Of a stretch of 64,000 nucleotides of DNA, positions 16,901 to 58,682 are shown piece by piece. The notes below the pieces were generated by a model. That model searched no databases and was not told where the DNA came from. It saw only the letters and a program-made list of their open reading frames with translations. Position 1 is the first letter of the stretch. The number at the start of each line of letters is the position of its first letter. Source of the DNA: Spironucleus salmonicida (lineage: Eukaryota); NCBI RefSeq assembly GCF_000497125.1, contig NC_090598.1:124001-188000 (forward strand). The letters run 5' to 3'. The translations under genes and the position numbers were made by a program.

Positions 16901-16905
16901 TCACT
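16896..16905. terminator. Back-to-back stop/polyadenylation motifs AGTGA|TCACT (mirrored at 23063-23072)
   Basis: Two convergent genes both end in AGTGA with zero intergenic bases. Confidence 0.6.
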
Positions 16906-17089
16906 CGCGGTGCACCCCCGCGGCGTGCCTGCTCTTGGCGTGCACGGCGGCACAGCGCTCGGCCGGCGTCAGCGTGGTGCTCTGGCGGTGCCGGGACCGC
17001 GCCAGGCTCTGCTGCAGCAGGCGGATGCGGTAGTCGGCCCTCCGCAGCTGGGCCTGCAGCACGTCTCTCCGGGGCTCGGGTGCTGGCAT
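16901..17089 (-). CDS. Small basic hypothetical protein (62 aa), copy 1
   Basis: ATG-started MPAPEPRRDVLQAQLRRADYRIRLLQQSL...; ends GAG TGA abutting the neighbour's stop; exactly fills the gap between two genes. Confidence 0.5.
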   Translation of the reverse strand: MPAPEPRRDVLQAQLRRADYRIRLLQQSLARSRHRQSTTLTPAERCAAVHAKSRHAAGVHRE

Positions 17090-17117
17090 TCCGATCAAGT
17101 TTCCCGGGCTCCGGGCC

Positions 17118-17720: not shown

Positions 17721-17877
17721 TGGAAACGGAATACTAATAATTTATTATTTCCTATAAAATAAATAGTGATTAGTATGGATTTTAACTGATAATATTATAT
17801 ACTTGTATACACCTATATGTAATTGCAAAAATATATTTTATTATATAATTTAACTAGAATTATACCACTTCAAAATC

Positions 17878-20800: not shown

Positions 20801-22509
20801 TCGATGACGGAGACTGGGCTTATAGTGAATTTCAGGAAACAGATGGACTGGCCTTAACTGGTAGAGGTTTATAACATTTTGCAGAATGTTTAGGTAGGCA
20901 CTATATTGGGAATTTATTGAAGTCTAAATAAGATTTTTATAGCTTGCCAAAGGAGTTTTCCACATAAAAATTCGGGTTTTATAATTTCTAAAGAAAGTTA
21001 CCCAATATGAAATCAGATGCTTTTAGATATTAATTTATGAATGGTATTTCACTATTAATTGCAGCTGGAAATTTTTAGGCCGCTATTGAAGCTTTTAAGT
21101 ATGCTCGGTGTGATGACTTGGTTGCATATTATTCAATTTTTGACCCTTAATCTATAGATATTGCATATTCAGAAGTAGATAAAGAAAGTGTTGCTAATAG
21201 ACTTAATTTAGAGGGATCTATTTCGCCAGTTTATAAGCGACTTATCGAAACATAAATAATAGTGCAACATAGTAAAAATTCTGATCTTATTAAATAAATG
21301 TGTTGGATTCTTTGCTAGTAGAGTTAATTTTGTTTAGCAAAGCTGATAGCTCACCAAAACAAAGAAACTGATATTATTATTGAAGTATCTTGGGAAATTG
21401 CATATGATTTACTTAGATAAAAATAGCCTATACGAGCTGCATTGGAACTTTTAACAGTAAAATAATACGAGAATGCCACAAAATTGCTTGCAATATCTGG
21501 CGAGCCATTTTTAGCAGCTTAAATTGCCATGACAACTCCAGAAGAATCTAGCCCTCTGGGTTTATTTGGCATGGCTGAGATAGCGTACTATAACAATATC
21601 GAACCAGATATTTTATTGAAAATAGGACGTGGTAATAGTGTTTCTAGTTAACCTGTAGATACAATGTTTTTAGCAAAGTGGTTTACCTTTGATAAAGTAA
21701 TAAAATATTTTAATAATATGTGTAATTAACTTAATGTTTTTAAGTAAAATGCAACAGAAGTTTCGAATTTCAATGAATAACAAGCATTAGCTATTGTTAA
21801 TATTGGGTAATTTTTTGATTACATATTGAAAGAATAAACCCCAAAAACTTTATTATGGTAAATGAATTAAGTAGCAGGATCTTTAGGATAAAGATATAAC
21901 ACTGCTTGTTTAGGGTTGATGGATGTGGTTAATATGTATGTTGGTAATTTTATAAAAACAAAATCGTCTGTAAAAGCTATATAAATTTGTAATGGGATTG
22001 AAAATTATGCCTGCGAGTTATCTACCTTATATAATTTATTTAGACATAGAGCATTAGATTCAAAATCTACAGTGTGTAGAACTGGAGCTTGTTTATCAAT
22101 GTATGTTGGTGGAATTCATGCAGCTAACCTTAACTTTTTTAACACAGCCGCATTTATGCTTTCTTAAGCCGAAAAAATAGCTACTAAATGCCCTGAGCTA
22201 ATTACTCCTTACATAGATATTGAAGAAATTAAGCTAAGAAAGCTTTTATGTATTTATGCATACTAATAAGGTGATAATACTAAATCAAAAATCACTATTC
22301 TATCTAAATAGTATCCAAAATATGAAAGTGTAGATGTTGAGTAATGGATGCATACTATTATATAAATAGGTGAAAAATATGATAACCATCGAGATCGAGC
22401 TATATTTTTAGCTGTAGGACCTAGTACAATGCGCTGCTTGTTTACACCGTTTGACATTCGACTACAACCAGTTTTAAGTTTTTGTAACACTGGTCTTAAT
22501 AATGAGTGA
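17878..22509 (+). CDS. WDR17: WD repeat protein 17-like (~1543 aa)
   Basis: Many WD repeats. IGHENNGRPIVFHPEIPYIVLTGSWDGTIRVW...GADVYGIAIQPSRPFEFLVGSRDLTIR matches my recollection of WDR17. Ends GAG TGA. Confidence 0.8.
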
Positions 22510-22565
22510 TATTTATATAGTTCTATATTCTAGTTATTTACAATTTAGATTGTGAACTCTACACA

Positions 22566-22850
22566 ATAGCGTTCAACCCGCCTTACGTGCCGGGGGACCC
22601 ACAGTGCGACAATCTGCTGGACCTGGCTCTCTGTGGTGGCGCGCACGGCAGGGATGTGATAGACCGTTTCCTCCAAGAGTTACCAGCCAGGTGCAGTCCC
22701 GGTGCCACGGTATATATGGTGGCAATAGAGGCGAACGCTCCGGACCAGCTGCTGGCCGTGCTCGCTACCCGGGGCTTCACGGCCGCGGTGGTGCTGCGGA
22801 AGCGCCTGCAGAGCGAGGCGCTGGTGGTGATCCGCGCGGTGCGGGAGTGA
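22566..22850 (+). pseudogene. 5'-truncated duplicate of the Mtq2 C-terminal half
   Basis: Begins at IAFNPPY. No in-frame ATG between the upstream in-frame TGA (22503) and the fragment. Lacks the SAM-binding motif. Confidence 0.85.
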
Positions 22851-22878
22851 GGCCCGGAGCCCGGGAAACTTGATCGGA

Positions 22879-23067
22879 ATGCCAGCACCCGAGCCCCGGA
22901 GAGACGTGCTGCAGGCCCAGCTGCGGAGGGCCGACTACCGCATCCGCCTGCTGCAGCAGAGCCTGGCGCGGTCCCGGCACCGCCAGAGCACCACGCTGAC
23001 GCCGGCCGAGCGCTGTGCCGCCGTGCACGCCAAGAGCAGGCACGCCGCGGGGGTGCACCGCGAGTGA
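22879..23067 (+). CDS. Small basic hypothetical protein (62 aa), copy 2
   Basis: Identical mirror of 16901-17089. Confidence 0.5.
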   Translation: MPAPEPRRDVLQAQLRRADYRIRLLQQSLARSRHRQSTTLTPAERCAAVHAKSRHAAGVHRE

Positions 23068-23529
23068 TCACTGCTTGCTCACTAGCCTGCCGCCCAGCTC
23101 CACGAAGGCCTCGAAGTCCGCGCGGCTGACCTCCTCCCCCGACCACTGCGCGCGCTCCAGCATCGCGCGGTACGGCTCGCTGCGAGCCTGGAACGCCCCG
23201 TCCGGGTTCCACAGCCGGTCCATCGTGGCCACGGCGGCAGCGTAGTTGCGGCGCTTGGCCTCGGGGTCCACCGCGACGTCGTCTTGGCGCAGGAGGGCGG
23301 GGACCATGCGCTCGACGGCGTCCCGGATGGCCTTCACGCGGTGGGACTTGAACTTGACGTTCTCCAGGGCCGTGAAGGGCAGCGGGCGGGTGAGCAGGTT
23401 GCGGCCCATCCGGCGCACGTAGTACCGCGAGGACAACGTGGAGATGGTGGCGATCAGGAACAGTGCGACGAAGATGATGAGGATGATGATGTTGATCACG
23501 AACTGCGAGACATCCGGCGTGCTCGCCAT
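23068..23529 (-). CDS. Hypothetical protein with N-terminal transmembrane helix, copy 2
   Basis: Identical mirror of 16439-16900. Confidence 0.8.
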   Translation of the reverse strand: MASTPDVSQFVINIIILIIFVALFLIATISTLSSRYYVRRMGRNLLTRPLPFTALENVKFKSHRVKAIRDAVERMVPALLRQDDVAVDPEAKRRNYAAAVATMDRLWNPDGAFQARSEPYRAMLERAQWSGEEVSRADFEAFVELGGRLVSKQ

Positions 23530-23566
23530 TTTGGGGCGGATTTGGTAAAATCACCCCTCCACGAAC

Positions 23567-24115
23567 ATGACCTGCCTCATCATCGTGGACCTGCAGAACG
23601 ACTTCCTGCCAGGCGGCTCCCTGCCCACCATCGAGGACGCCCGGCTCGTGGCCATGATCAACGCCGCCCAGCCGGACTACGACTACTGCGTCGCCACCAG
23701 GGACTGGCACCCGCCAGCACACCAGTCCTTCGAGGCCGTGCCGGGGATCTGCATCGACGCCACGCCGGAGTCCATCCAGTGGCCCGCGCACTGCGTCCAG
23801 GGCACCCATGGCGCCGCCTTCGCCCCGGGCCTTGCCGTCCCCGAGCACGTCTTCAGCAAGGGCCAGCGCGAGGATGTGGAGGCCTTCTCCGGCTTCTAGT
23901 CGGACGGGCTGGCGCGGTTCGTCCAGAGCCGCAACGTGCACCGCATTGACGTGGTGGGCCTCGCCCTCGAGTTCTGCGTCAAGGCCACCGCCCTCGATGC
24001 GCTCAAGTACGCAACCGAGGTGCGCGTGCTAACTGGCCTCACGGGCCGCGTGTTCCCGGACAGCGCGGAGGAGGTGGCCCGGGAGCTGCGCGCAGCGGGG
24101 GTGGTAGTGATCTGA
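23567..24115 (+). CDS. pncA: Nicotinamidase/pyrazinamidase (PncA family), copy 2
   Basis: Identical mirror of 15853-16401; in-frame TAG at 23897 read as Gln; TGA at 24113. Confidence 0.92.
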
Positions 24116-26416: not shown

Positions 26417-29400
26417 TCATTAGATATTTGCAATTACAGCAACTCCTTTCAAAATCCAACTATTAGCCTTTACGGAACTTTTTAGCTTTATAGTGAATAT
26501 ATAATTTAGTCCAGTCCTGCTTGGATTTTTATAAACTGGGCATTCATATAAAATGATACCTTTTTCTCCAGGTATATCACCGTCGCTAGCATCTATTCGT
26601 AACAGAGGAAGTGAACTAAATAATTAATTTATAGGCTGATCTATCAATTATTCTTTTTTGCTATCCCACGCCGCACCCTGCAGGCTCAGCCCTTCGATGA
26701 AATAACCAGTCTTCTGATCGCTTTTAGGCTTTTAAATTTGGGTCTACAACACGACCCTATCTAAAGGCCATTGATTCCTTCTTGCTAACTCTTATTTTAT
26801 TGCAGTTAAAAAACCAGTTGGGTTGAAGAAACCAGAAATCTGGAATATTTTTGGTGTAACCTTTTACCATAATTTGTATTACAAATGCCTAGAAGACAGA
26901 TCACTTATCCAGAAAGTGAATGATTTTGATGGGAATGAAATGTTGACAAATGATTACGGAACTGATCCATCTGATATATGTGTTAAAACTGATTCCAATT
27001 GCTCAGACATTATTGCAGTCCCATCAATTGCTTTTTAAAGATCAGTAAGTGTATATTTGGTGAACTATAATACCTAGTTAATCCTCTGTATTTCTTAGTG
27101 CAAAAATACATCCAGGGGTGAAATCGACGCTGGTGCATTTGAAACTAATAATTCCGGTAATTTATCTATTATATTTTATATGTTGATATTAGTATTAAGT
27201 TTCTTGCCATCAAGCAAATTGTGTAAAATTTCGTTTGCCTAAACTTCACGGAAAGCCAAATCAGCATTTGCAGACATTTAGAAAACATTTGGTGTATCAA
27301 TAGAAGGTAGTAGTTGTATATAGTCAAGAATTTGTTATAAATTATTTGTTCTTGGTATCGTATGACGAGGCGCAAACTTAAATTCCTAGTCACTTATGCG
27401 GTTATTAAGGAATTCTTACGTATAGGCCATCATCAGACGCCTATCATAATCATCAGTAATTCTACCGCCGTAATGAACTTCGGCTATCATATACCATACC
27501 GTTTTCCACGAAATTGCGACGTTCTTTCTTGAATCAATAGAATAAAGATATTGTTAGATAAACCCTGCTGAGGCATTAAAGTCGTGAAGACCAAATTCAT
27601 ATTTACAACACCATCCAAGGGTTCCAAATTTCTTACGCTCAATTATTGCTGCATGAATGAACGTTGTAGCATATAGCATTGGAAGCCATTGAGGTTTATC
27701 ACCTGAGTCTAAGAAATCTTATGTTAATTATTAATAAACACGCATCATATTAGCACGTAGACCAGTTGGTGGCTCGTTAGTTAATTTGATTGATTTTTAT
27801 AGAAGTGTAATAGGGAATTTCTTGTGGTGTTCAGTTGTAAGAATCAGTCTGAATTCTGAATTAACTTACTAGCTATTATTTAGTAACTAAAAATACCCTG
27901 TTGATTAAACTTATTTTAACAAAGAAGATTTATCTTTGTCTTATGATGCTTTTATCTTTTTAAATATAGAGTCTCTAATCTATATATCAAGTAAAAGCTA
28001 GTCAATTTCTTACATGAAATTAATGGCTAAATGTGAGTTATTAATCATAATCCAATTACCATTTAGTATACACTCAGTGATTAATCTACGTGCGTTTGCC
28101 TCTTATCCTTAGCCCATTGAAATTTATTTTAATTCTAACTTTTTATTCTTAGCTAAAACTTCTAATTATTATGTAGGATCTGACCCCAAGGAAAGTAAAA
28201 ATGTAACCACTTAACCTGGTGAAGTCTCTGTATTGAAAATTTATTCATAATTTGCATTCGCTGGGTTAGTATACTGAGGACCCATCTATCTATCTATATA
28301 ATGTTACGCAGCAAGAATAGTTCGATCATCTCTAAAACATCTTATTAAAAGAAGTCTTTAGAATTATGAGACCCTATCCTAATAATCTGATGGGAGATCA
28401 ACCTATTCTACATCCGACATAAACCACTATTTCCATTCTTCATCATTATCCTAGCAAACATTACAGACAGAATGAAATACAGGTATTTATTATAAAGCAG
28501 TTACATTTCTCCAAGCTTTATCATTACACCATACAGGAAAACTACGTGTTTATTCTATTGACGACCCACCTTTTACAAAAATATTGAACTCCTATGGTGT
28601 TATACTTTCTTTTTATAGCTCTATTTATAATGTTAATTTTAATGTTAATAATTATTTGTCCTTTTCATATAAGCCTCTTAAAATATATGTAAACGCTTTC
28701 TCAGTTAAATACTCTAAAACAAAGTTTATACGTTTATTTGGTACTTGGTGTTGTGGTGAATCTTATATTGATAAATCAAATATGTTTGTAAACTAGTTTA
28801 GTGAAGTTTGATACATATGATTTTAGCTAGTTAAATCACAAATAACAAAATATAATAACGCTCCTCTAGTTGCAATAGGTAAATAGTCTTATCTAGCCTC
28901 TTCTATTTTTCGTTCAGTGTCTACCGCTACAACCAATTTAATTTTCACTTCTTCCGCAGTCTTTTTAGTATTATTTAAGACATCAATAAGCTCTACATCA
29001 TCTAACAAATTTCCAGTTGAGTTAGAAAGCTTATACAATAAATCCTCCTCTAATTTTTAAGCCATTTTTTTATTCTGATTAACTTCTTCTAATAACTAAA
29101 TTCTTTAAAGTTCAAGATCATATTTTTCTAAATTAACAGTTCTAGATAATAGTTATGCTTCTAGCCCTGCAAAGGAGACTGCAAAATCAATAATTGCAGT
29201 TTTAGCATACATTTCAGGTGTATATACTGGAGATGGTAGACGTGTAGTCATAAACATCCTAAAATTCTCATCAACAGTTTTCATTTGATCCCCAACTCGA
29301 ACTTCTTTTCTCAACCCAGAAATTTAATACTACTTTTCTAATATTGGATCCAATATTGGATCAAAGTCTTATTCGACATCTTCTATTAAAAGAATCTATC

Positions 29401-32400
29401 CGTTTTCAACTGCATTTTCTAGTATCATTTTAAATTTACTAGAAGATTACGTGGTAACCACTAATTTTTCTCCATACATATTTTTTATCCATGAGTTTCC
29501 TTGATTTTGAGGATCAATAATTAAAGGATAATTTGGCGAATTTAGGGTAATTATACCGTTTTAAGTTGATATTAGATCGTTCGGTAAGCCTAATAATCTC
29601 CATTCTCCAACTTATGCCTCAGATACTAATTTTTTAACAACATAATTTTCAATTCCTAAAGTATATTAAATTCGATTCTCTTATATAAATTTAACCCATT
29701 TTTCTAATAAAATTTATCGATATTTTTAATTATATGGACCACAATAATTCATAAAACCAGCTATAACAATTGAATTGCCAATTGTTTTTGATATTATTTC
29801 ATCTAATTCTTTAATTTATTGTCCCCATCTATTTCTCTCACCAGATAATCCTTATATTAGAGAAGATGCAGTATGTAGACGCTTCTAAGTTAATTATGCC
29901 TCTCGTTATAGTGTCATTTTCTAGCCATTAACTTCATCAAATTATGCTTATAAATTATCTAATATTAACTATCTATCAGCTAACTCTTATTATGCTTTAC
30001 CTAATTTTTACATTGCTAATCTATAAACATGTTCCATATCTCTAACTTTTTATCTTTTTGGTTCTACCTCTTATGCAATAAAATGATATGCTTTCATAGA
30101 AACTACCCAATTATAAAGACCACACACATCTTTAGATGCTTTTTATGAATATTCAAATGTAAAGTCTAATTATGATAAGTAGCAATCAAGTAATTCGCAT
30201 TGTTCATCAGTAATTGCATCTTTATTATAAATCTACAATTATTGTAAAAATGGACCTGACATAAGTGTATAAGATTATTGCCATGACGGTATATTTGCCT
30301 TTATATTTGCTCTTTATTGATCCATCTGTATTTTATCTAATTTTACATTAAGTAAAATTAAAACTGAATCTAAAATTCTTTAAATTAAATTAGGTGGATT
30401 CAATAGCTTTCTTAAAGTTTAAATCTTGCTCGGCTCAATTGATTTTAATGCATTTTCAGCTTGAATTAAAAGTGGCATAGCTTTTTCTAAACCCGCTTCA
30501 GCAATACCTTTTTATTCTTTAATTTCTTCAGCCTATTTAGTACACTCATCTGCTACTAATTATACCTCAGCTTTAATACCAGCTGCTTCTTTTGTTTAGA
30601 CAGAAATATCTTGCATCATTTCTTCTGTTTTCTTAGATGCAATAGCTAGTTCTTTCTCCTTAGTTTCTAAATGTACTCTCATAGCAGCAATATCATCTGC
30701 AGCATCAAATAAAATTTATAAACCTTTTTTAAGTTTGTTCTATTAATTCTCAAGTTAACTAACTTCTTTTTAATAAATATCTTTATAAATTGTCAAAAAG
30801 GATAAAAATGATTTCGGTGTAATGTTGGTCTTTCTTGACGTTTCTTCACTATATTTTTAGATAATCTCATATACAAAACTATGTACTTATGATAAACATA
30901 TATTTAGATTATCCCCTTAATTAATCATATGACCAGCTACCTATTATAAAGCATCTAAACTCCACTCTCTATAATAATCTATAATACAACCACTAATAAT
31001 TCCTGGATATTTATTACATCTTTCTCTAAATAATAGACCTGGAGAAAATGATAACACTAAATGTAGCTATTATTTCATTTTATTTAAGAAGAATCTCCAT
31101 AAGCTATCATTTGTGTCACTCTATCGAGGGCATTCTTTTTTAAATATAGACCTTGCATCTGAAATTATTTCTTCCCTCTCATCTTTAGCATATAAACCAG
31201 GTACCTCACCAACAGTCAATAGGTTATTAATACGTTCTAAAAACATTTCATTTTTGATATCATTATCTGTAAATCTAAAAATAATATCTTCAAAAAATGC
31301 TTCACGGCCTATTTTTCTCAAATCATCATCAAAATTTTATAAATTATAATTTTTGGTAGCCTAAATTTAAATAAGTTTAAAACCTGTAATATGTGATGCA
31401 ATTTTTACAACACTTTACTTTCCTGAACCACCAACCCCAATTAATAATGCATGTGAGTTTTGTGAAAATAAAATTCTAGTTAATCTTGTTATATGTTACA
31501 TACACGAGTCAAATAATACTAGATCAATTTAACTTTTCCTGTATTTTTCATTATAATCGTTTTAATATTAGCTTAACCGTTAAATTAGTTAGTCTTCGTT
31601 AGCAGCCTCATAAATATGAGGGACCTTAATATCTTAGTCTTCTTCTACAGTGTCAGGCGCATCTCTCATAAAATGTGAAAAATATACATTATTCGCAAAC
31701 TGTGAATATACATTTGCCCCAAATTCTCCTATATCTTAATACAATATTGTTGATAACGTTTATTTAAACCAATTAATATCTTTTTCTTTATTACACCTAT
31801 CAGAAAATACACGGAAGCTTTCATTAATCCATAGTGTTAATAAAGCATGGGGTGTATTAATCACATCTTTATCTGCCTTAATTAACGATTAAGTTATTCT
31901 ACTTAAATCTCTAAGGTTGAATTAATAGTGGAATTATTCCGGTGTTGGTAGTAATTTATCTTTAACCTTATAAAGCAAAGTACGCATTAATTTTGGCAAT
32001 TTTTCAGAAAGACTAGTTACATCTTCTGAAAATAGATCTTTTACAAAATAGTTCTCTAAAAATGATCCAAATATAAAATCTAATTACGAACTATTTGGCA
32101 TATTTAAAAATAAGCAGAAGAATTAACTCTTTAATCTGTTTGGTATATCATTTCTCCCCCCACCTGGTATTGGCATCGCTGCTAAATATTGGAGATCTTC
32201 AATTACTATCATATCTCCTGGCTTAGATAATGAATAATAAAGATACTGTTCAATAATTTATCTTGTTAGCTCATTTGTCGTTTAATCTCCCCACTCATTC
32301 ACTTATGGTGAACTTAAATCATCTAAAAATAGTAACCCTTACTTGTTCAACGGAGGACCATAAGAATTTCCCAATCGTTTTTCTAAAAATGTTTCAAAAT

Positions 32401-35400
32401 TCTTTTATAACATTTCACAAGTTGTCATAGATGATAAATTTATTGTTTTTATCTATTTTTGTGACTCTTACAAAAGAAATGAGTTAATAATTTTACTTTT
32501 TCCACTTCCAGAGTCTCCTACCACTAAAATATTTTATACCTGTGATAATTTTTATATTAAATATTATAATGAGACATTATCTACTATAGGAACTAAAGTT
32601 TCGTTAAAATTACCATTATATACAAATTTTGGTATAATAGACTACCATAATTACCATTCTCCAGCTTCATTCACGAAATAATTAAACATAGACTATGCTT
32701 GATCAGGCTTATCATAGATATCAAACTCCAGAGAATTATATACAAATCGCTAGAAAATTTTCTTCTAATCCAAATTTAAAATTGATCCAAATGAATAAAT
32801 AAGCGTAAAAAATAGAAGTCTATTGATTTTTATTGGGCTTTACAATTTTATTATTTCAGCAATACTATCGGCAAAATAATATAGCATTGAATCTCTTGTA
32901 CTATTAAAGCCTTCCATAACCAAATGTCGTGCTTATATTAACGAATCTGCTGTTTCTGATGTTAAAAGTGATACAAATAATGAAACAAATTGTCTAATGT
33001 ATTACAAAGGTTAAAATTTGAACAAAGTATTTTCCTTGAGAACAAATGAATATACAGAGTCAATAGATTATGTTAAATCTAAATCAATACCCCAGTTTTA
33101 ACTATGAATATTATAGAATGGTCTCCATCCAACCGAATTAAACCCACTCATATAAATCATACCAGCTCTGGATACCGTGGCTGGGGATGCATTATCTAAG
33201 TTATCAACTTCAATAATTAGCTTCATATTCTTTGTCATTGGTATTCTATCAGAATTAGCTAGAGTTAAAAGCTTGTTGTCATCCATAACTGTGTTTAAGT
33301 TTTCAATCCAAACAGCATCTACTGGTCCGTCTAAAACAATAAACGTAAAATATTCAGCTTTTACTGCTTTTCTCCAAAGTGCAGAAAAAATACCATCTGT
33401 CCAGTCTCCTGACGCAGAATCTAGCTTTCCAAACATTTGTGGCGCAGTTATTGCTTTTGGATTCATTTTCATAATAACAGATTTTTTTCCTTAGATTTAC
33501 TGTAGAGATTTTGCTAGTGTATTAATAACCGTTGATTTACCAGCTCCAGATGAACCTAATAACATAACAGAATGTCGGACTGCAAATGATTCATAAAACT
33601 ATATAACAGATTTATACCACTCTGGTTAGAGTTCTAAGTGCAACGATTTAACTTACAGTTAGATTTGATTCTCTAAACTCTCGTATTAATTATCTGGAGC
33701 TTTAACACCTGGAAATAAGTCTTGCATCAGAAATTCAAATAAAGGAATATCCTAAGCAACTAATTTTGAGCGATTCATATCCCTTAATACTCTTAAAATA
33801 ATTAATGATTCTGAAAGTTAGGAATATTAACGTCTTTGTTACCCACATGTTCGTAATACTGATAAAATATTTCTTAAACCAAAATCATAATGTCTTTGTT
33901 ACGATAACTATTCCATGCAAAGCTAATATAAAATAAAGAACTTTTTGGCTAGAGATTTAGATTCAGAAAATCCTGCTGCTGCAAGCTTGACATCCATAAT
34001 AATTTATTTATCGGGAACCATCATAGATACAGAACGAAATAGCACTTTTAAGTTTTCTAATAATTCTACACGGCCAGCATAACCTGGATTCATCGTAATG
34101 AAATAAGCACAAGTACCTAATACTTTAATATCTGTTCCATCTGTATAAATTGAATTTTTCTTCTTTTATTTAATGCATTGCAAAATGCATTAAATTTATT
34201 ATGCTGCAACAGACATAACCGCCAATTCAACCCGATTAAATTCATCAAAATCTCCATATATACCACTTTATGCAATACCTTTATAAATCTTTCCTAAACC
34301 TTTATAATCCATCTAATCTGAACAATTAAACACTACAACAAATTAGCCAATAGTTTTTCCAAAATCTTTACAGGTTTCTGTTTTTCCAGTACCTGCAGGT
34401 CCAGATGGCGCACCACCTAAAAACATACCAATTGCTTATGCTAGTGTGATATAACATCTATCTGTCAATGGTGTGATAACTAGTCTTTCATTAATACCTA
34501 AATATTCATACTAATACGTGAAATTAATATCCGTAATTTAAATAATACAGTCATCAATATCTGTATTCCAATAAACCCTTGTTTATTTTAGCCATTCAAA
34601 ATCAGTTACACTTCGCACAGGTGTATCTCCTGTTACAAGTTAAAAGATTATATCTTTCTGATGCACTTATATAGTGATTAATGTTTCTATATTTGTTCTT
34701 TTCTCAGATGTCATATCTTATTTTATCAAACTAATTAATGATTCCATAGTTTTGTTCACAATAGTTAAATATTTTCTTTATTCTTATTTATCACATCGTC
34801 CTCTAAAATATGATTCACAAGTTTGAGTCCAGACAAACTAAATAAAAACTAGTGAAACTTAAGCTGGAAATTCATCAATAAGCTTGCTTAAATTTTATTG
34901 TAAATCGATTGTATCTTATATTGCAGACTTTAAGATAGCTTTAATGGTTTTTTACATTTCTTTAATCAACAAAGTTAGCCAATCTTCTACATTACCCTAT
35001 GCCATGACTTATTAAATTAGTTCAACAGATTCATTGTTTTTATCTGAAAAATGAGAAATACTTCCTCTTTTCGATTTTTCAAATGTTAGTTGGTACAAGG
35101 CATCAAAAATTTAATTTAAAAATGGTTGAATGGTATTTGGATCTGACTACCCTCCTAAAATTTCTAAGAGTACAGCATCTGAAACAAAACAAAATCTTGG
35201 AAATAAATTACGCTTTTGTTCTAAATATCCACTGAGGCACTTTTAAGTCTCTTCTAATGATTAAAATAGGACTGGTAAATTAGTTATTAGTGCATCATCG
35301 ACAGATGTCAAATAAATACAACCTGGATTACATTATGCATGTCCCATGAGTTTAATCCATGTTTTATCTAAAGTATTAAACTTTCTTGCTTCAGCTGGTA

Positions 35401-38400
35401 ACTATCTAGAAATATCCCCTGATGCAAAAACTGCTTCTAAATAAGTCCAATTTTATTAAACAATAGACCATAATTTGAGAATTTCATCTAAAATACTTAG
35501 CTTTTTCATATATAACTAAATATCTTCTTTAAAAGGCTTATTAAATTTATTAGAATTAAGACTAGATAATATCATTAAAGAGTCCTCTAAAAGGGTATTT
35601 ATTTCTGAAATTCTTTTACTCTCCAATAAACAAAATCCTTTAGTTTTATATTCTATAACAACAAATTTTTTATCTGTCCATAAATCTATTACCTCTTTTA
35701 GCTTATCTTCGATATCTGTTTCTTTACTCGCTGAAATAGCTAGATCTTCTATTTCATCTCTAAATTCAAATATACCTGCTCCTAATAAGACACCCAGCTT
35801 AAATGAATCAGGTTTCTCAACTACCTATAATATTTATTAACATGAAGTAATTTTACTTATCTCTATCCAGTGTCTTTCAATAATAGCTTTATGTGATAAT
35901 AATTACAAGACTGGAAACACAGAACTAAAATCATCAATTTTTTTCTTTAGTTCAATATAAGCATCCCATTATCTCATTTATTTAGGTAATCTTGCGCATT
36001 TATTTTAAAAATCTTATAATACAGACTATATTGCTGAAAAATTAGCTTCGAACCATAAATACTCATTAAAAGAGGAAATTGTTAAGGTGACATCATTATA
36101 TAATGAGTATAACTTTTAAAGCATTATAATTTCTTTCTTAATTTTATGTATTTCAGGGTAATCTGTAACTGGAAGTCCAAATAACTGTTCATTAGATGTA
36201 TATGTTACGAAATTTGACTCAACTTTTTAAAATCGTTAAGAATAAAAATCAAGTTTATTTGAAGCTTCTTATGGTTTAATATCAGGTTTCAAAGGACCAT
36301 TGTCCATATAATCTTATACAAAATCATTAACTTCTAAACTAAATTCTTGAACTTTTTAAGTTAAAGATTACAGCAAAAATGGTTATTTTTCTTTAAGTTC
36401 ATATTGCACATTTAATGCTATAGACTATAATTATTTAAGTTTATATCGTAACTGATCTTCTAATTCTAACTCTGAATCGTTTACTGAATATTCGCATTAT
36501 TATAAAAATAAATACATGTCACGAATTGGCCCAACTTTAATATCAAATAAGGAGTCTAATTCTCTTAATTAATCCAACGTGTTCATAATTATTCTAACCC
36601 CTTCTAAATTATTTTTCGAGATAACTATTTTTAATAATTTCTCAATGCTAATAAACTCTTAATTAATAATATTTAGTTCGTTCCTTGCTTTGTTGTTAAG
36701 TTGCTGACAGAATAGTTACTTAATTTAATTTATTTCAATTAAAATTTATTCTTTAATATTCTTATAATTTACTAAGAAAATACCTTCATGTGTAAAATTA
36801 GGAGTTTAATTAAGCTATTGAATAACGTTATTAAGCTTTGCCACCTAATACTAATAGCCAACTAAATTAGGTTTGCTATTCGCGAATTATTGCAAAATTT
36901 CTATTTTATTATCTGTCCAAAACTATTAAAATTGTTAAAACTCAGTAAGTAAATTATGTTATTTTTAGATAAAATGCATGACTCTACCCTCAATAGAAGC
37001 TAAATTCGTAAAAAGAGTTTTAGAATTTCCAACGTAGTAAAACATAGTTTCTTATGGATTAATTCCATCTAATTCTTTGATAAATTATGATTCATCATTA
37101 TTAATGGACCTAGTTGTTTTTTGATTTAGACCTTATGATCTGTTTGTCAACATAGATCTATCAGTGTTGACCTATTGATCAATAACAGACTTAATTTCAA
37201 CGTTTCTCTCATGATGTATGTTAACGAATTAAGAGCTTACTAACACATTTTAATCATCACCTGTATATAGACTACCAACTGACTGCAAAACAAGTTTTTA
37301 GAATGATGTATTCGAATCCCATAGTGGTAATCGCTAAATAAGTTATACAATTAACTTTTAAAGATCTTAAAATGTAGTTTTTAACAATTTTGCATCTGGT
37401 GCAAATTTAGGTTATGGAATTCCAAATACAATTTCTAAAACAACTAATGGGTCGTCTATAAACTACTCTACTTATTTTTTTTATGCTTGTGCAGATATCT
37501 GCTAAGAAACAAAGCTACTAACATTAAATCCAAATCTAAGGCTCAGATCATTGACAGTGTTAATGAAAATATTATTTATAGCTAAATAGCATTTCTATCT
37601 ATAATAAATAACTAACTCTTAAATGTTAGCCACAAGGGTTTGTGTAGCTGGTGGTAATGCCTCAATTTAGCTTAATAAAGATTGATCTTTCTTAAATATT
37701 GAAGCAATCGCCAACATAAAGTAGTTATGTACAGTTTTAGAATTCTACGAAGTGGAGTTACTTGTATATCTAGATAATATTTACTGCACCAAATATACTA
37801 CCTCTTTAGCTACAGATAGGCTTTCTTAGATTATTTTTTTAATCATTGTTTCAGAATAATTTCTACACTCTTCTACAAAAAGTTGCAATTGAGATGCATC
37901 TGTATTTTCAAGATATTAAGAATAAGCCAACTTAAATTCTACGGATTTCACTAAATCAATATCATACTAACTCATAAATTAGGAAAATAAAAAAGTTTTC
38001 TTTTTCTTAAATGGGAATAATTTTATTTTATTTATTCCTTAAATCATCTAAATTAATTTTTAATTAGAATTAGTAAGAACAGCAATTAAAGAAATGATAT
38101 TTTCAATGTATGACTCAAATTAATATGAGAAATTCTCTATACTAAGAGATGTCCAAGTAAACTAATGTAATCCTGGCTAAATTTTCTTAAACATTGAATC
38201 AATGACAGGTTTCACTAATAATTTCATATGTTATGGAATATATATTCTTTTTATTTTGTTGCAATAATTTGTTAAAATGTCTCTAGTAGATATTAATGTA
38301 GGGAAAATAACTATTAATTACTTCAAAAGATCTGGTAATGGTAGCTTAACTTATTTTAGTATTAGTCCTGTTTTATAAAAATCAATTATTATTGGCGAAA

Positions 38401-40156
38401 AATTGCACTTCAATGATGTAGTTTTTACTAGCAAAGATTTATTTAAATGAATTTTAAGATCTGGCATTGTATTGCATATATTAGTGTATGATTTCTATAA
38501 ACAATCCACAATTTACTATTAAATATTTTAATATAGTCCAACAATTTTACTTCCCATAGAGAATGAAAATAATAATGGTAAATGACATTCTGGAATCTCA
38601 TCTTTTCTGAAATATAATCCAAATTATTATTAGACTTACTCACGTATTTACTATTTCGCAAATTCATTTTAATAATCTGAAATAACAAAGATTCTTTTTA
38701 TAAAAGAAAAATTTTTATCGATTTTAGCTTATAGCAATCTGCAAGTAATCATTTTAGATATCTATTCATTATATTCTTGTATTTTATTGAATTTATTTGT
38801 AACCAAAGTCTGATTTATATTTTTTAACTATTGGTAAAATAAAATCAATAGCATCTTATATGACTCTAGAACCGATTCTTTCATAGATTCTCGACTAAGT
38901 ATCGGATTTAATTGTGATAAAACACTAATTAGCTAGGCAATATCCTTTTGATTAGAAATTTTGTATAAATAACTTTTCATTTCATTTTCTAACGACACAA
39001 TACCATTTTTATAAATATCGAAATCAAATTCAAATTAATTGTCATCATAGTGATTATACGGTTTATTTCTTAAAACTGAAATTAAAGACTCTAAACTTTC
39101 TAATAAACCATATAAACCTGGGATTGTTGTTTAATGTAAATGAGCAAAATTCTAATATGATGTTATAACAAATGTTATATTTTTTAGCCTATTTTCAAAC
39201 TTATCAAATTTGTCAAATATATTTGTTTCTGATATTTGAATCTGATTTTTGTGTATAAATTGTTTAAAAGTTTATTATAATTGTATATTAATTTGTAATA
39301 TATCTTACGATGTAATAATAAATTGCTCTAAATTAATATCATAAATGGTACTTTCTTTATTTATTTACTAATCTATCCTATCTTTACAAATTATAATCAA
39401 CTAATTGACTAGACCTAACATTAATGTAGTTATATGTTCCGGTAAACAATAAAAAGATGACATATTAAAAATCTGTTCTAAAACTTATACAAATTATACA
39501 AGCTATTTTGCAATACTATATAAGGGTTGTCTTTATAAATTTGCAAACAATTGAATAATTTATTATAAATACTTAACATTGTCTTTGCACTCAGTTAACA
39601 TTTTAGCAACTTTTTAATATAAATTACCTTCTGCTTAGGCTTCTAAAATTTCTAAAATAGCAACTCTAACTCTCCAGTATAAAATTTCATTCTAAGGTCC
39701 AGAATCGCTAGTAAATACTCTAGCTTAATTTAATGATATTAACGTTTACTCAGGATTCGAGGAAAATGCAAATTTTTTTACAGATTAAATTTCACAAAAC
39801 AATGACAAAACGCATGAGAGCTACTATTATCCAGTAAAGGCTATTTAATTCTTTATATCAATCTCAAACTAATTTATATCTAATACAGAATTTCCATATA
39901 TAAAGTCATTATCTAATCTCATGATATAGCCATAGAGATTATATTTTGCCAAATCAGAAAGCTAAAAAGAAAGTATAAGTTTTTGATTACAATATTGAGC
40001 AAAAATTACTGGATTCTCTTTACTAGATATGAAATCAATCAGCATTTAAGTGGCGTTAATAGAATCAACGCTAGCTAAAACCTCATCATAATCTAAAATT
40101 AATATGTCAGATATCCGTAAACACATTGTTCTAACATGAGGATTATTTAGGTTCAT
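26417..40156 (-). CDS. Axonemal outer-arm dynein heavy chain, gamma type (DNAH5/8-like), ~4579 aa
   Basis: Same frame at all sampled points: GPQNEILYW, P1 [20 protein letters not shown]2 [43 protein letters not shown]4 [20 protein letters not shown]-terminal WILKGVAV. Confidence 0.95.
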
Positions 40157-41246: not shown

Positions 41247-42605
41247 ATGTAAAGTAGGCATTGCAAACATTTACGACTTAGAAAATAGTCTAAAATTTGT
41301 ATTAAATGTGGTGAATAAATAAATGATGTAATTATTGACAAGGATTATCATTTAAACTAACAGATGAGTATTTATGAGAAGTTAAGTTTAATGAGTAAAA
41401 CTATTCTTAGATTTGAGCAATAAGTTAAATAAAATAATAAAATTTTACTATTCTTGGATATTGATGATACAATACTTCACTGTGAACCAGGAATTCCAAA
41501 TGAAAATTGTATATCTGGTTATATTATTAGAGAATAATTTGAATCACTAAATCAATATTATTTGTTACTAAAATAATATCAATATATCTCGTTTGAACTT
41601 TGTAGACTAAATATTAATGGATAAACATCATGCAGTAACTATTATTTTTCAATTCGGCCTGGCTTTTTAGATTTCATTCTTAATAACTATCAAAAGCTTA
41701 TCATACTAATTACAACTACAGGAGTATATGAGTATGCAAAATAGATTTGTAAGATATTAGATCCATAAAATATATTATTTGAGAGAATTACTGCACGCGA
41801 AGGATAAAGTACTGGTGGTTAATAAGGTATTGTTGTCCCAGATTAATCCACTATATTATCTTAAACATAAAATTAATACTTAATAGATCGCAATATAAAA
41901 ACTATTGATATAATAAAAGACTCATAAATATTACTTAATAATTATTTAATCTTTGATGATTCTTCATTTCCTTGGTTTAATAGTAACCCTCCAGAATAAT
42001 TCTTTCGATCCATACCATACACAACTTCAAAAATTACTACAAATAATGACTCTTTTGCTCAATCATTTCTTCCTTTAACCTAGGAAAGGTCTTTTATTGC
42101 TCCTTTTATCGACTATGCTGCTTATTACGAGTAATAGATGCTTACACTTGAATATATTATCAATTAAGATCGAAGATTGTCATATTATCAGGGAAAAGTA
42201 TTTCGAGATTGTGTATTTTATTTTTAAAGATAGTGCCCTTCTCTTTATTAAGAAGTAAATGAAACAAATAATGAAAAATTATTAATGTTATAGTATATTA
42301 TAAACGAAACTGCTTAAATAGATTTGCGTATATTAACTGTATGGTAATTTGGAGGAACTGTTGTGAATCAATTTTCTAATGCTGTAACTCATTTTGTAGT
42401 TAATAACAAATAGTCAGATTAGTGTGTTAATTATGTCAATGCTAGTTGGATTAAATAGGATAGCCCAATTCTTACATTAAAAGATAAATAAGAATATGCA
42501 TAAAAATTATTAGTTTCTTCAGATTATATTTTTATATCTGCATTTTTATTAAAAAGGTAAAATAATTCATTTTTAAATTAAGCAGTCTTATCAAATTTCT
42601 AATGA
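41247..42605 (+). CDS. FCP1: FCP1-like RNA polymerase II CTD phosphatase (HAD + BRCT)
   Basis: N-terminal CKH...CIKCG; catalytic LDIDDTILH (DxDxT); IRPGFLDF...EYAKQICKILDP; BRCT-like QFGGTVVNQFSNAVTHFVV. Confidence 0.85.
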
Positions 42606-44746: not shown

Positions 44747-46051
44747 ATGAATAGCTCTGAATCTTTAGTAGATTATTTACTTATAAATGCAGATGATGTA
44801 TTTAAGACTAGTTTAAGTGATGCTATAATGATTAATAATAGCTAGTTTTAATTCATATGTACTTATACAGGAGAAGCAGAATAAATAATTAAGACAGAAA
44901 TAAGTAGAAAGCTAGGTAGTATTTATGGTTCCATTCATGATTACTATCAAAATATTTCCGATTGTAACCTTGCAGCAGCAACTCAACTTAGAAAGCACCA
45001 GTAATTTTTTAATGAATTGGAAAAAGAAAAGGTTTCTATACCTCCTATGTAACAGATTAACTAAACAAAAATTTATAATTCTGCTTTGCAATTAGAGAGT
45101 ATCAATCTACATTATTTCTAGCATCCAGCATCAGACTAATACATTGCAAGTAAGTTCAGATTAGCTCTTACTTCTTATAGAAATTGCCCTATTCCTCATA
45201 TTACACTAAACGAATTCCCTCTTCTACTTAGCAAGTGTTATTAAGTAGCGTTAAAAATTTTCAATTTATTAAAAACATCATTTGCAAAAAATGATATCTC
45301 TAAGTTCCTTCTTCTATTGTCTGATGACCTATCAAGCCCGAATTCACCTGTTTTTGAAGTTTTTGTAAAATGGTACAAAACATATAGTAGTAATATTTTA
45401 GAAAATACGGATTTAGAATCCTATTTACTCAACGACAATATATCACTATTTGGACTCAAATAAATGGACGCAACTGCATCAGTTTTGCTAAAATTATGCT
45501 TTTTAGTCCTCTCTTAAAATTATAAGCTTGTTGGTTATGAAAAAGGAATGAAAAGTCTTGAAAATGTAGGTTATGATGTTAAAAATTGTTATTTTTTAGT
45601 TGAAAAATATGTGGAAGAGTTAGAAGACGGAGAAATTGAGCCTCTTTAATTTTTATTAGGTGAAAGTGATAATACAAAATTCCTCGACGAGGCATTTGAG
45701 ACCGATGATACAAGAGCATTTTTAATCTTCCCAGCTATCGTAGATAGTTAAAATAAGCTTATAATGGAAGGAAAAATGGAGTTTTAGATTACGAAAAGTG
45801 GTTAAATCAAACCGGAGATATATGTAGAATCTGGATTTTTCGATGATATTAATACTAATAAAGTGCCTCTCAAATTTGATCATCAAAAAAACTACTAAGT
45901 TAACTTTTAAAAATTCTCATAGTAACTTAGAAATATCAAAGAAAAAATCAAAGGTCAACAGCACATAATAGAATCTTATAATTACTATCAGCAAAAGGAA
46001 TACCATATTTCTTAGGACAATATACTTCTCCCAAAGTTCATAAATAAATGA
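44747..46051 (+). CDS. Hypothetical protein (~434 aa)
   Basis: Long ATG-to-TGA frame under TAR=Gln; no motif recognised. Confidence 0.6.
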
Positions 46052-46064
46052 TTAAAATTCAATT

Positions 46065-46703
46065 TCACTAAAAATGCTTGATAAATAATCCAGCCAAATA
46101 TCGAGCATCACCAAGAGCGCAGTGAGATGAACTCTTCTAGCTATGATACTTACATTTATTTGCTTTATGCATCTCCAAATTAGCCTGCTTTGATGAGAAT
46201 TTTGCCCCCAAAAATGCATGCGAAAACAAATCAAAATCAATCAGTTTACCTTCTAAATTCTTACATTTCATTTAATGATATAACACCACATTTTCAAGGG
46301 TTGGATCCTTTGCAATTATAGAATCGACAAAATGTGCTGAAAAGCTAGTTTATATACTTACAAACGGGCATTTTAACTGATACAAATCTATGCTACTTCC
46401 CAAAGCAAAAATTTCGAAGAGGGGACCAAGTTTAGTGATTTCTATTGGTCTAAAGAGGTGGAAATTTGGGTCGTTAGGGTGTGGTTTGTTCCAATTTATA
46501 TTAGAATCCAACACACAATTGACAGCACACTCATAGTCATTAGAATTCGGGAGAATGAATGCATGAAACTGAGCTACAATTTCACCATTTTAAACACGAA
46601 TAGCACCGATTTCAAATGGAACTACTAAGGGACATTCTTGGTACGGTTATGCAAAATATGCTTCGAAATCTAGAAAAATATGGTTTCTCAATAGTTTGTT
46701 CAT
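46065..46703 (-). CDS. Maelstrom-domain / DnaQ-like DEDDh exonuclease (212 aa)
   Basis: FLDFEA, VPFEIGAIRVQNGEIVAQFHAFILP, AKDPTLEN, KCKYH...SHCALGDARYLA. Confidence 0.72.
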
Positions 46704-46749: not shown

Positions 46750-47859
46750 TCACTCGTTTTTTATGATCTACGCAATTTCACTGATTGTATAGTGGTATTC
46801 GTCTTCGTTAATAATTTTTAACATTTAGATAAAGCAGTTAGCATTCTATCTGATACTTTCCCCGAAATCTATAGTTCTCGCTTGTTCTCTCTGGTCATGA
46901 TCCATTTAGTCAAATAAATAATTGCAAAGGAATAAAAAGTTCTAATTACACTATCTTATCCAATTTTCTGATTATATATTACCATTTGTTAAGTAAAATG
47001 ATTCTTTATTAGCAACAATCTCGAAACCCAGAAATAAATCAAAAATATCAGTAAAAGTATCTGGGGATGATATTTTAACAGGGTACTTCTCAACTTTACA
47101 ATCAATATTAGAGTGGAGATTTAAATTCAGTGACTCATCCATTTAGAACCGGAATGTCATTCTATATAGTTTCTAATGATTAATTGAGTTGTATAGAGGC
47201 TTTAGTGTAAAAATTGAATCAAAATCGACAGTTTTGAATCTTTTATAACCATAAAGCACAAAATCAGCAGGAGGTTAATCAATGAGCTAAGCGACTAATT
47301 CCGACATGTTTAGTTACGTATCTTGATAGAATACCTTTTTCTATATCTCTGAATAGTCAATATGTCTTCTTTATGCTGTTTTAACATAAATTAAATCACG
47401 TTTTTGATTATTTTAAATTTCTAAAATCTTGATTATTTAAGGAGTCTCAAGTGGTACGGAAATATTGAATTTAGAATATAAAATTTAGTTTGCAGAGAGC
47501 AATGCTTTTGCAAACTAAACTGTTACCATTGCATCAGAAGATAATGAAAACTAAATCAAGTTTCCTGGAACCTGGCAAGAAATAACAGTGTTATCCTTCA
47601 CTTTATCAAAATCGTAATATATTTGGTTTCGACTACCGATATGGCATAAAATATCATCTGCTATCTGTGGAAGACATTATGTTCCAGTAAATGTTAGCAG
47701 TTTGTCTTCTAAAAGAAGCTAAACCTATCGTTCTACAGAAGGGTCGAAATAACTAATGAGATCTTCGATCTTAGTGAATTTTTTGAAAGAATTGAATGGT
47801 TAAATATCTGTAGAATTTAGAATTTATTGGATAGGTGAGTTTTGGAATTTTTTAATCAT
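46750..47859 (-). CDS. Hypothetical protein (~369 aa)
   Basis: ATG and GAG TGA in frame; open where read. Confidence 0.6.
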
Positions 47860-50868: not shown

Positions 50869-51327
50869 TCAGAAAGGCATGAAACGTTTACGCTTATGCT
50901 CAGCTACTTCCTCAGTCTTGATCACGTTGAAAGAAACGGTCTTAGAAAGCTGACGGCATTCACCAATGGTAACGATATCACCTTCTTTAACACGGAAGCA
51001 AGGGCTGATATGTGCGGCGATCTTTTTGTGACGTTTTTCGAATCTTTTATACTTGGTAACGTAGTGGAGGTAATCACGACGGATGATAAGGGTTCTCTGC
51101 ATCTTGTGGGAAGAAACAACACCCTTGATGATACGACCGGTAATTTCAATGTCGCTAGTGAAGGGGCATTTCTTGTCAATATAATGACCAGTGATGGCTT
51201 CTTGAGGAGTTTCGAAGTTCTTGCCAATGCTCTTGTAAAAACGGAAAGCCTTTCCATTTTCACCTAACTTGGTATGGCATACCTGAGGTTGCTGGTGGTA
51301 GAAGTTTTCGATCAGTTGACCTTCCAT
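50869..51327 (-). CDS. RPS11: 40S ribosomal protein S11 (uS17)
   Basis: [66 protein letters not shown]. Confidence 0.97.
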
Positions 51328-51380
51328 CAATTGGAGTGGAATTATATAAAGGAAATGAAATATTTTTTATACTATATTAT

Positions 51381-51818
51381 ATGGGAATATTTAATGTATT
51401 TGTAAATTTTATAATGATAATTCCTTTGTATTGGGCATAGTTTGGCGCTGTGTTATGTGATATATTGATTACTGCTATTTCAATTATATTTGAATTGTAT
51501 ATAGCAGTGGGATTGGTAGCAGTTCATTTAATCTTAAAAATTTTAATCATTATGTTATTTTGGAAACTTTTTAGTATCAAGCTTGGTAACACATAGTTAA
51601 AATTTACAAAATCTTTAATTCAATTTATTATGCTCAATGTTATCTAACTTATGATTATATTCATTAGAATTATTGTCTACCTTTTAACACAATCTCTTGG
51701 TATAAAAGTAGTTGAGTAAGTTATAGGATGGATTGATTTAATCATTACTGTAGGATTTGATCTGTTTGTTTTTTAAATTTTCCTTTAAAATATCCGAAAT
51801 TTAGCAGTGAAAAAGTGA
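51381..51818 (+). CDS. Small multi-pass membrane protein (145 aa)
   Basis: Fully open, about four hydrophobic segments, ends AAG TGA. Confidence 0.65.
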
Positions 51819-57392: not shown

Positions 57393-58682
57393 TCATTAAA
57401 CAATATATAATTACCAGTGATAGGATAACAAGTATCCTAAATCTTAAAATTACTCGCAATTTCTTCCAAAAATATCATAATAAGTTTTATCTTAGAGCAG
57501 ACTTTCATACATATTTAACTTTTACCTTAGATTGCATCCAAGTTATCCACAAAATCCGAATTCATTAGATTGATCAGCGTTTAGTAACGTTATACAAGCT
57601 ACCTCAGAACAACTAACAGTACTAAGTATACGCGTGGATAGTTAGGTATAATTATTCTTGTATAATATCAAGTCCTACATAATGTATTTAAAAATAGTCT
57701 CATTAAATTTTACAATTTTTAATATGGCTTATAAGTCATTTAGTAACTCTGTTTTTTCAAAAGGATATAAAAGCTTAAATACATAATCATATTATAAGGA
57801 TTGGGTAATTGCTTAAGATTATTTACATTTATTAACTTATTTTAGCAATAAATTGATTGTATTGATGCTTCCTGTTTTCGTAGCATAAAAAAGAGCTGAA
57901 TTTCCATATTAATCCAGTAGATCTAACTATAAAGAATCATTTTCAATAATTGCTTTACATCCCTCGTACCAACCTAATTTTGCTGTCTCAATTAAATTAA
58001 AGCACTTAAAAAACTACAATGCTTAAATATTTTTATACAAAAAGGATGTTTATAATAGATCAAACAAATCAGCTTATTCCTTAAAAACTGAATAAAACTA
58101 ATGCCTATGGTTTCTTATAGCAAATTATAAAGCACTTTCATTTTTTATAAATTAAATTTTGGGAAGAAGCAAAATAACAGCCTCATATTTATTATCTATA
58201 ATAGATAATTCCAGAGCCTCTTCTAAATAATCTTAAAGGTTTGTATATTCTAAAATCAAACAAAAAATTGATTTTTTAAAGATTTCAACTGCCAGCGTTA
58301 AAGGAGTTTAATGATTATATGTTAATACGGCAAATGATGAGTCCGATTTAATAAAAGATTCCACAACTTAATAATTTTATTAATAAATAGCGACGAAAAA
58401 TGGTTCTGGGTCGTAGCCTAATTATAAACACTGAATTTAGCTAATTATAGTAGGGATTAACTAGGTTCTATTGAATAAAACAGCAAGCATTAAAGGATTT
58501 GGTTAATCTTATAAAGTCATATACTACTAAGTTAAAAAATGAGTTATAATAGACTCTGCATTGTATCTTATTGCTAATGTTAGAATAGAATGTTTATTGT
58601 AAAATATTAACTACTACTTAGATTCTAAGGCAATAAAATAGTCCAAGATATCATTTTTTAATTATTCTAAAAATATATCCAT
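57393..58682 (-). CDS. Ankyrin-repeat protein (~429 aa)
   Basis: HSILTLAIRYN, NPLMLAVLFN, TPLTLAVE, DQYGNSALFYATKTGSINTINLLL. Confidence 0.75.

Follow-up and report, generated by a model that had tools for sequence, protein, structure and literature searches.

Among the described nucleases with a Maelstrom (MAEL) domain, RIF4 of Trypanosoma brucei, the trypanosomatid MAEL of Zhang et al. 2008, was found through its occurrence only in RNAi-positive trypanosomatids (PMC3359990). TbRIF4 is a 3'-5' exonuclease which prefers dsRNA and converts siRNA duplexes into single strands (PMC3359990, where PMC2628886 is cited for the RIF4 motifs). With a length of 490 aa, it acts together with AGO1 and is restricted to species that have RNAi. 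The MAEL of Entamoeba is a Mg/Mn-dependent ribonuclease by which single-stranded RNA was fully degraded (PMC4408791), so that a preference for duplexes is no rule of the family. In Entamoeba histolytica the MAELs (e.g. EhMael, EHI_192630) represent a lineage-specific expansion, some members of which are catalytically altered or have tandem domains. Entamoeba possesses an Argonaute pathway.

Metazoan Maelstrom (Bombyx 5AF0/9NHC, Drosophila 4YBG) carries an HMG box, has lost its catalytic residues and acts with Piwi. In Bombyx the zinc ion is held by E137 (on strand beta2), C290, H293 and C302, and this zinc ion is the feature that sets MAEL apart from DEDD nucleases (PMC4408791). The exonuclease (ExoN) of the arenavirus nucleoprotein combines DEDDh residues with the same ECHC zinc motif (PMC7968707).

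The gene and its probable transcript

In the window, i.e. the whole analysed stretch of 64,000 nucleotides from Spironucleus salmonicida, we detected at 46065..46703 on the minus strand a gene for a putative single-domain MAEL-type nuclease of the DEDD family, based on genetic code 6, Pfam, a structure model and structure search. With NCBI table 6, in which its six TAA/TAG codons are read as Gln, the gene is a single open frame of 212 aa. Table 11 breaks this frame into pieces of 33, 54 and 44 aa; the first-pass annotation had thus rightly described the gene as invisible in the standard-code ORF track, and the table-6 translation it proposed as a check yielded the open frame.

The same-strand ORF upstream (46750..47859) has its stop 46 nt before the start at 46703. 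A longer reading of 306 aa from the in-frame ATG at 46985 was rejected, as that ATG falls within this upstream gene. Together with the starts of the close relatives P0004 and P0008 at nearly the same residue and the database entry for the protein, which has a length of 212 aa, this favours 46703 as the start. At the other end, the stop of the convergent neighbour (44747..46051, plus strand) is situated only 13 nt from the stop of the nuclease gene; the 3' ends of both genes therefore probably overlap. The neighbour encodes 434 aa with a faint VPS9-like match (E 0.009).

An AGTGA motif overlaps the TGA stop codon (46065..46069, minus strand). AGTGA is the polyadenylation signal reported for S. 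salmonicida, with the tail following about 14 nt downstream (PMC3916229). At position 46052, 13 nt beyond the stop, one contig from a run guessed to be RNA ends with 9 non-genomic T, marking a probable poly(A) addition site (46052..46052, minus strand). The gene is also covered, in gene-sized pieces, by contigs from four runs of one study, likewise only guessed to be RNA. This is modest evidence for a polyadenylated transcript.

The other neighbours were assigned by Pfam to a CTD phosphatase, WD40, the ribosomal S17 family and a bromodomain, and by eye to a dynein heavy chain; neither Pfam nor by-eye reading indicated a functional link of neighbouring genes to the nuclease. The phosphatase gene (41247..42605, plus strand) has a NIF phosphatase domain and a weak BRCT match and presumably encodes an FCP1-like CTD phosphatase. 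The dynein heavy chain corresponds to a table-6 ORF of 4579 aa (26417..40156, minus strand). The table-6 ORF of the ribosomal protein S17 family (50869..51438, minus strand) extends at its N-terminal end by about 38 residues beyond a second ATG, and this later ATG is probably the true start. The window further contains two G+C islands (16001..18000 and 22001..24000) with 56-57%, compared to about 30% for the window, and a milder one with 44% (4001..6000).

Predicted catalytic site, zinc site and fold

All motifs quoted in the first-pass annotation (FLDFEA, PFEIG, PTLE, CKYH and HCALGD) are present in the table-6 translation, as D12-F-E14, PFE31IG, AKDPTLE137, C184-K-Y-H187 and H194-C195-A-L-G-D199. 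They comprise the complete catalytic DEDD-h set (D12, E14, E137, H194, D199), and the ECHC positions are filled as well (E31, C184, H187, C195). According to family alignment and model, the Exo I motif D12-x-E14 (46662..46670, minus strand, as for all following residues) is situated on strand beta1 (residues 7-19). The stretch H194-C195-A-L-G-D199 (46107..46124) contains the catalytic His and Asp (Exo III) together with C195, the predicted fourth zinc ligand; this assignment is based on conservation and on the register of the end with Bombyx C302 and R306. C184 and H187 of the C184-x-x-H187 motif (46143..46154), likewise predicted zinc ligands, are conserved and fall on the Pfam Maelstrom stretch (176-210). 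E31 (46611..46613) is the predicted Glu ligand of ECHC, is invariant and corresponds to Bombyx E137. It is located on strand beta2 (26-38), and since the zinc Glu of Bombyx comes from strand beta2, E31 and not E137 was assigned as zinc Glu here. Of the candidate zinc ligands named in the first pass, C184, H187 and C195 can thus be retained, but the Glu of PTLE, E137, belongs to the catalytic site.

E137 (46293..46295) occupies the third acidic position, with a Glu instead of the usual Asp. In the T. brucei row of the alignment in PMC2628886 the third acid is found 98 residues past the first (hand count), in agreement with D294 and D392 of RIF4. The third acid of RIF4 follows the K of the K-G motif by 5 residues; E137 is situated 5 residues after K132 (hand count). 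Because of this equal spacing the third catalytic acid is taken to be E137, which makes the site DEEDh (D-E-E-D-h): the catalytic set had been recognized as complete in the first pass, but was taken for DEDDh. A Glu at this position is compatible with catalysis in coronavirus ExoN, and an E191A entry was among the structure-search matches.

When compared by eye with the Entamoeba and trypanosomatid rows of the alignment in PMC2628886, the protein agrees in its D-x-E-A and K-G motifs and in its tail, C-x-[YF]-H...H-C-A-L-x-D-A; these rows likewise have a D-x-E start, a P-x-E, an H-x-x-x-x-P and the pattern C-x-[YW]-H...H-C-A-L-x-D-A. This comparison refers to the published alignment, as the sequences concerned occurred in none of our search results. 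With RIF4 the Spironucleus protein shares the catalytic pentad and the E/C/H/C residues, the D-x-E-A start, the K+5 spacing to the third acid and the H-C-A-L-x-D tail, but RIF4 has Asp as third acid. The Entamoeba MAELs resemble it in their DEDD and ECHC residues and in having no HMG box, but they also have Asp as third acid, and the spacing differs. Of the six-residue E-H-H-C-H-C signature of Zhang 2008, five residues were recognized by eye (E31, H47, C184, H187, C195) and the second His is absent, so we class the protein as a variant of protist-type MAEL. This second His is outside the solved MAEL zinc site (PMC4408791).

A shuffle control, in which the Cys/His motif was seen once in the actual sequence and in none of 200 shuffles, is given little weight because it is circular, the motif having been taken from the same family. 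A weak profile match elsewhere in the window (58259..58516, E 0.003) was rejected, as it has none of the motifs.

The structure of the 212-aa protein was predicted from a 22-row alignment with a pLDDT of 85.7 and a pTM of 0.87. In the model, the first strand carries D12 and E14 and the second E31, a short helix contains H187, and C195 immediately precedes the last helix. We are confident that the protein has the predicted DnaQ-H/DEDD nuclease fold, which takes up residues 1-212; an HMG box was not detected by Pfam, in line with the first-pass annotation. Among 48,161 solved chains, Bombyx Maelstrom ranked first (9nhc_F, Z 13.4, rmsd 3.0, 167 residues aligned), Drosophila MAEL second (4ybg, Z 13.0) and Bombyx 5af0 seventh (Z 12.2). 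With Z scores of 12.9-13.2, however, DnaQ epsilon, DinG and RNase T are within 1 Z of MAEL, which we count as a tie, and a second look agrees; RNase AS and ERI1, too, are equal or nearly equal in structural score. The comparison with MAEL and DnaQ structures recommended in the first pass therefore places MAEL at ranks 1 and 2, but does not set it apart. The aligned ranges (model 1-212, Bombyx 111-319) would put D12, E14, C195 and D199 on Bombyx D122, N124, C302 and R306, provided that the ends are ungapped; these four Bombyx residues are named in PMC4408791.

Further searches gave a similar picture. In Foldseek, ordinary DEDDh enzymes came first by E-value and MAEL at ranks 18 and 41, with 5af0 (Bombyx MAEL) having the highest TM (0.56) among the matches listed. 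An Atlas structure search returned a Maelstrom cluster, eighth of ten rows, with the top TM (0.69 compared to 0.58-0.61), and among the matches listed for the Atlas feature search, which points to bacterial and viral exonucleases, there was no Maelstrom cluster. The Pfam Maelstrom profile (PF13017, gathering score 22) matched the protein with E=0.0033 and 17.6 bits, i.e. below its cut-off, and this match falls on the Cys/His stretch; RNase_T matched with E 0.0034, also below the cut-off. Over 13 family rows, RNase_T was matched by 11 and Maelstrom by two, and the Maelstrom profile independently picked up paralogs on contig C1. Searched against PDB sequences, the family profile matched PolC exonuclease best (E 4e-9 to 6e-9, N-terminal part only), and no MAEL chain was among the matches listed. 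A viral structure library yielded generic DEDD matches only, with a best E of 2e-7; the entry concerned is the viral model A0A385IST1 of BFVD (TM 0.55).

Fold scores alone thus leave MAEL and the other DEDDh enzymes unseparated; the residues do separate them. The ordinary DEDDh exonucleases (DnaQ epsilon, PolC exonuclease, RNase T, ERI1) share fold and catalytic layout with the 212-aa protein, but are without the ECHC zinc site (PMC4408791), a motif that is invariant in the Spironucleus/Hexamita family. Metazoan Maelstrom is alike in fold and ECHC positions and provides the top structural matches; its HMG box, its loss of catalytic residues and its action with Piwi have no counterpart here. 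Residues and DEDD-fold model together support the first-pass view of a MAEL-like domain of protist type that stands alone and has its catalytic residues intact.

Paralogs in Spironucleus and Hexamita

Beyond what had been noticed before, the gene is part of a family with at least seven paralogous members. In the S. salmonicida genome we found at least nine loci for at least seven distinct proteins of 212-674 aa, the gene at 46065..46703 included; these counts are lower bounds. The genome search placed the further paralogs on contig C6 at 546.8k and 578.6k (one protein in two copies) and at 880.1k, on contig C3 at 620.7k, 1439.7k and 216.2k, and on contig C1 at 1220.8k and 1245.6k (again one protein in two copies). 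At least five of the seven genes are annotated only as hypothetical.

The two paralogs present in two copies lie in near-identical inverted duplications (C6:545305-548808 / 577148-580651 and C1:1219327-1222416 / 1244103-1247192) of 99.7-99.9% identity, with the copies about 25-32 kb apart. These might be due either to recent duplication or to the assembly of alleles.

The 12 hits obtained from 1.84 billion representatives comprise six proteins of Hexamita inflata, one full-length unnamed protein, four fragments and one unrelated protein, the 2416-aa repeat protein P0009, which was dropped. P0028 was also dropped as a family member because it is unrelated. The 14 full-length members examined, one per cluster, are seven from S. 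salmonicida, six from Hexamita and one unnamed. All nine key residues, catalytic and zinc, are kept in all seven distinct S. salmonicida paralogs. Among all full-length members, the zinc-site residues E, C, H and C and the Glu at the third acidic position are each conserved in 14 of 14, and the full D-E-E-H-D set in 13. Since the residues are kept in every paralog and the zinc residues in every member, the motifs are not due to chance.

The exception is P0011 of Hexamita inflata (250 aa), which keeps E-C-H-C and has D-Q-E-N-N at the catalytic positions; it is probably an inactive paralog, parallel to the loss of activity in animal Maelstrom. Catalytically altered members and repeated domains thus occur in Hexamita as in E. 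histolytica, whereas all seven Spironucleus paralogs look intact. P0013 and P0022 (H. inflata, 808-810 aa) each contain three MAEL-like repeats, and the combined catalytic and zinc motif is complete in the middle repeat only. The alignment in PMC2628886 includes an Entamoeba protein in which the MAEL domain occurs twice.

The paralogs carry varied N-terminal extensions; the gene at 46065..46703 encodes the bare 212-aa form. In a pairwise comparison of the N-termini only two Hexamita proteins were linked, and a single-sequence model of the 674-aa paralog had a pLDDT of 31. By eye, the N-terminal extension of P0012 (residues 1-70) resembles the start of an RNA-recognition motif; Pfam gave no RNA-recognition-motif match for them at E 0.1.

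A search with the single protein against 5.8 billion proteins returned nothing but the query itself. Searches with family profiles among proteins of 86-604 aa found three and six proteins and missed several of the family's own members, so they are uninformative on an absence from Giardia, Trichomonas or others. In a scan of metagenome contigs, none of 60 pattern matches was confirmed. In a tree of 13 domains no branch was strongly supported, and long branches meet.

RNA-silencing machinery and possible role

Dicer, Argonaute and RdRP were not found in S. salmonicida according to the genome description in PMC3916229, and Dicer and Argonaute were not found in newly sequenced diplomonads according to the account in PMC11437800. 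Our own profile searches for Piwi and RNase III gave no candidate in the S. salmonicida genome; the same profiles matched in 2 and 8 of 14 control genomes, respectively. The PAZ and RdRP profiles matched neither in S. salmonicida nor in any control genome. The sensitivity of these searches is mixed, as the divergent 36-bit phosphatase gene of the window was found and an annotated RNase T-family gene was missed; the RNase_T genome search was a false zero, and the absence results carry known false negatives. The genome check suggested in the first pass thus brought no Piwi or RNase III match, at this sensitivity, and the small-RNA role hinted at there is not supported: Dicer, Argonaute and RdRP are reported to be missing from the species, and none of them was found here. 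A co-occurrence with Argonaute and Dicer, as for RIF4, leans to not being given in this species. In trypanosomatids MAEL was lost along with RNAi, whereas the Spironucleus lineage, reported RNAi-less, retained several: its 212-aa protein has at least six paralogs.

The descent of the protein could be explained differently. A bacterial DnaQ/PolC-type exonuclease might have evolved a similar Cys/His site and might even act on DNA; PolC exonuclease being the best sequence-profile match in the PDB, the tied structural scores and the direction of the feature search would fit this. However, the nearest bacterial-type hits were weak (E 0.17-0.2), one that was inspected lacked the C-x-x-H/H-C residues and aligned over the N-terminal part only, no bacterial exonuclease was among the 12 hits from 1.84 billion representatives, and the four zinc-site positions with their flanking motifs agree with protist MAEL. 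We therefore regard such an origin as very improbable. For a derivation from an arenavirus-like nucleoprotein exonuclease, which has DEDDh and ECHC in common with the family, one may point to the published shared motif (PMC7968707), to the nucleoprotein as top feature hit after skipping DEDD families (0.89, a lead only) and to a faint profile hit (E 1.4-1.6). The structural scores are much lower (Z 8.8 for the Lassa nucleoprotein and 7.8, compared to 13.4 for MAEL), and the viral exonuclease is a domain of a nucleoprotein. The 212-aa protein is without the N-terminal domain of the latter; it is a stand-alone cellular gene among housekeeping genes, i.e. ordinary cellular neighbours, with no viral context, and the family extends to Hexamita, which makes a viral source hardly credible.

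Other alternatives concern the use of the enzyme. The same MAEL-type enzyme might do a housekeeping job, i.e. trimming or decay of ssRNA 3' ends in place of other DEDDh enzymes in a reduced genome, with rRNA, snoRNA or tRNA maturation or poly(A) removal as targets. This would be consistent with the complete degradation of ssRNA by Entamoeba MAEL (PMC4408791) and with the structural ties or closeness to RNase T, RNase AS and ERI1; moreover, the paralogs may predate the split of Spironucleus and Hexamita, which would point to stable roles, although no branch is strongly supported. Yet Rrp6, exosome subunits, 5'-3' exoribonucleases and an RNase T-family exonuclease are annotated in S. salmonicida (PMC6397501) and thus retained, and at least seven divergent paralogs with varied N-termini would exceed the needs of one housekeeping step. 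On balance we consider a housekeeping role unlikely. That the enzyme is a RIF4-like factor which strips passenger strands from siRNAs, in a small-RNA pathway hidden because its highly divergent Argonaute and Dicer escape detection, appears improbable. TbRIF4, a protist MAEL with an in vivo role, does act in this way, in RNAi-positive trypanosomatids only (PMC3359990), and genome searches have false negatives. But Dicer and Argonaute are missing from the published accounts of the species and of newly sequenced diplomonads (PMC3916229, PMC11437800), and no Piwi or RNase III candidate emerged, though the same tool caught the divergent 36-bit gene in the window.

The best explanation, to which we assign a probability of about 60%, is a protist-type MAEL/RIF4-like nuclease working free of Argonaute and belonging to a hexamitid family in which there are at least seven paralogs. 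As to its parts, the MAEL type is highly probable; judged by its relatives, the protein is very likely an active enzyme, and its independence of Argonaute is very likely, too. By analogy with solved relatives, E31, C184, H187 and C195 would hold a structural Zn2+; from solved and assayed ones, D12, E14, E137 and D199 would bind two Mg2+/Mn2+ ions, and H194 would activate a water molecule. With such a two-metal site and water-activating His, the protein would take nucleotides off free RNA 3' ends as a metal-dependent 3'-5' exoribonuclease. Because Dicer, Argonaute and RdRP are reported absent, a small-RNA guide would not be involved. Its use may tentatively be seen in the clearing of duplex or structured RNA, e.g. 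viral dsRNA, transcripts of repeats, or hybrids of sense and antisense RNA from closely packed genes, a proposal we hold at somewhat below even odds; RIF4 and the tight gene packing observed here are the reasons for favouring such ends over ssRNA housekeeping trimming. Paralogs with differing N-terminal extensions may have different targets, and the bare 212-aa form might be unspecialised or recruited by a partner.

It is conceivable, though rather doubtful, that Dicer and Argonaute disappeared in hexamitids and that an old nuclease associated with RNAi was kept or expanded for an Argonaute-free RNA surveillance. Variable N-terminal modules would then direct at least seven active MAEL paralogs to the duplex, repeat or viral RNA that they remove, and such a system might supply control of cysteine-rich membrane protein genes. 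In Giardia these genes are thought to be regulated through RNAi; in S. salmonicida the regulation of surface proteins was left to "some other unknown means" (PMC3916229).

Active protist MAELs are already known, and the single gene at 46065..46703 is a fairly ordinary protist-type MAEL. What stands out is a multi-gene, intact, Glu-variant MAEL family in a reportedly RNAi-less lineage. A literature search outside most subscription journals found no MAEL placed in diplomonads or in an Argonaute-less organism, and the word "maelstrom" does not occur in the genome and survey papers searched for it, including PMC3916229, PMC11437800 and PMC11787283.

In the literature consulted here, the Maelstrom-family proteins with an in vivo role, animal Maelstrom and trypanosome RIF4, act beside Argonaute. 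An intact multi-gene MAEL family without Dicer, Argonaute and RdRP would break this link, and the retention of at least seven intact-looking MAEL-type enzymes in a reportedly silencing-less parasite suggests that the family has a job outside RNA silencing. For S. salmonicida, seven genes would receive a putative function, and the MAEL paralogs become candidates for RNA-level control, such as surface-protein regulation, in this fish parasite. If the surveillance proposal is true, the Maelstrom family would have had an activity independent of silencing from its ancestral state onwards, and an ancestral nuclease role of MAEL is directly testable with this small single-domain protein.
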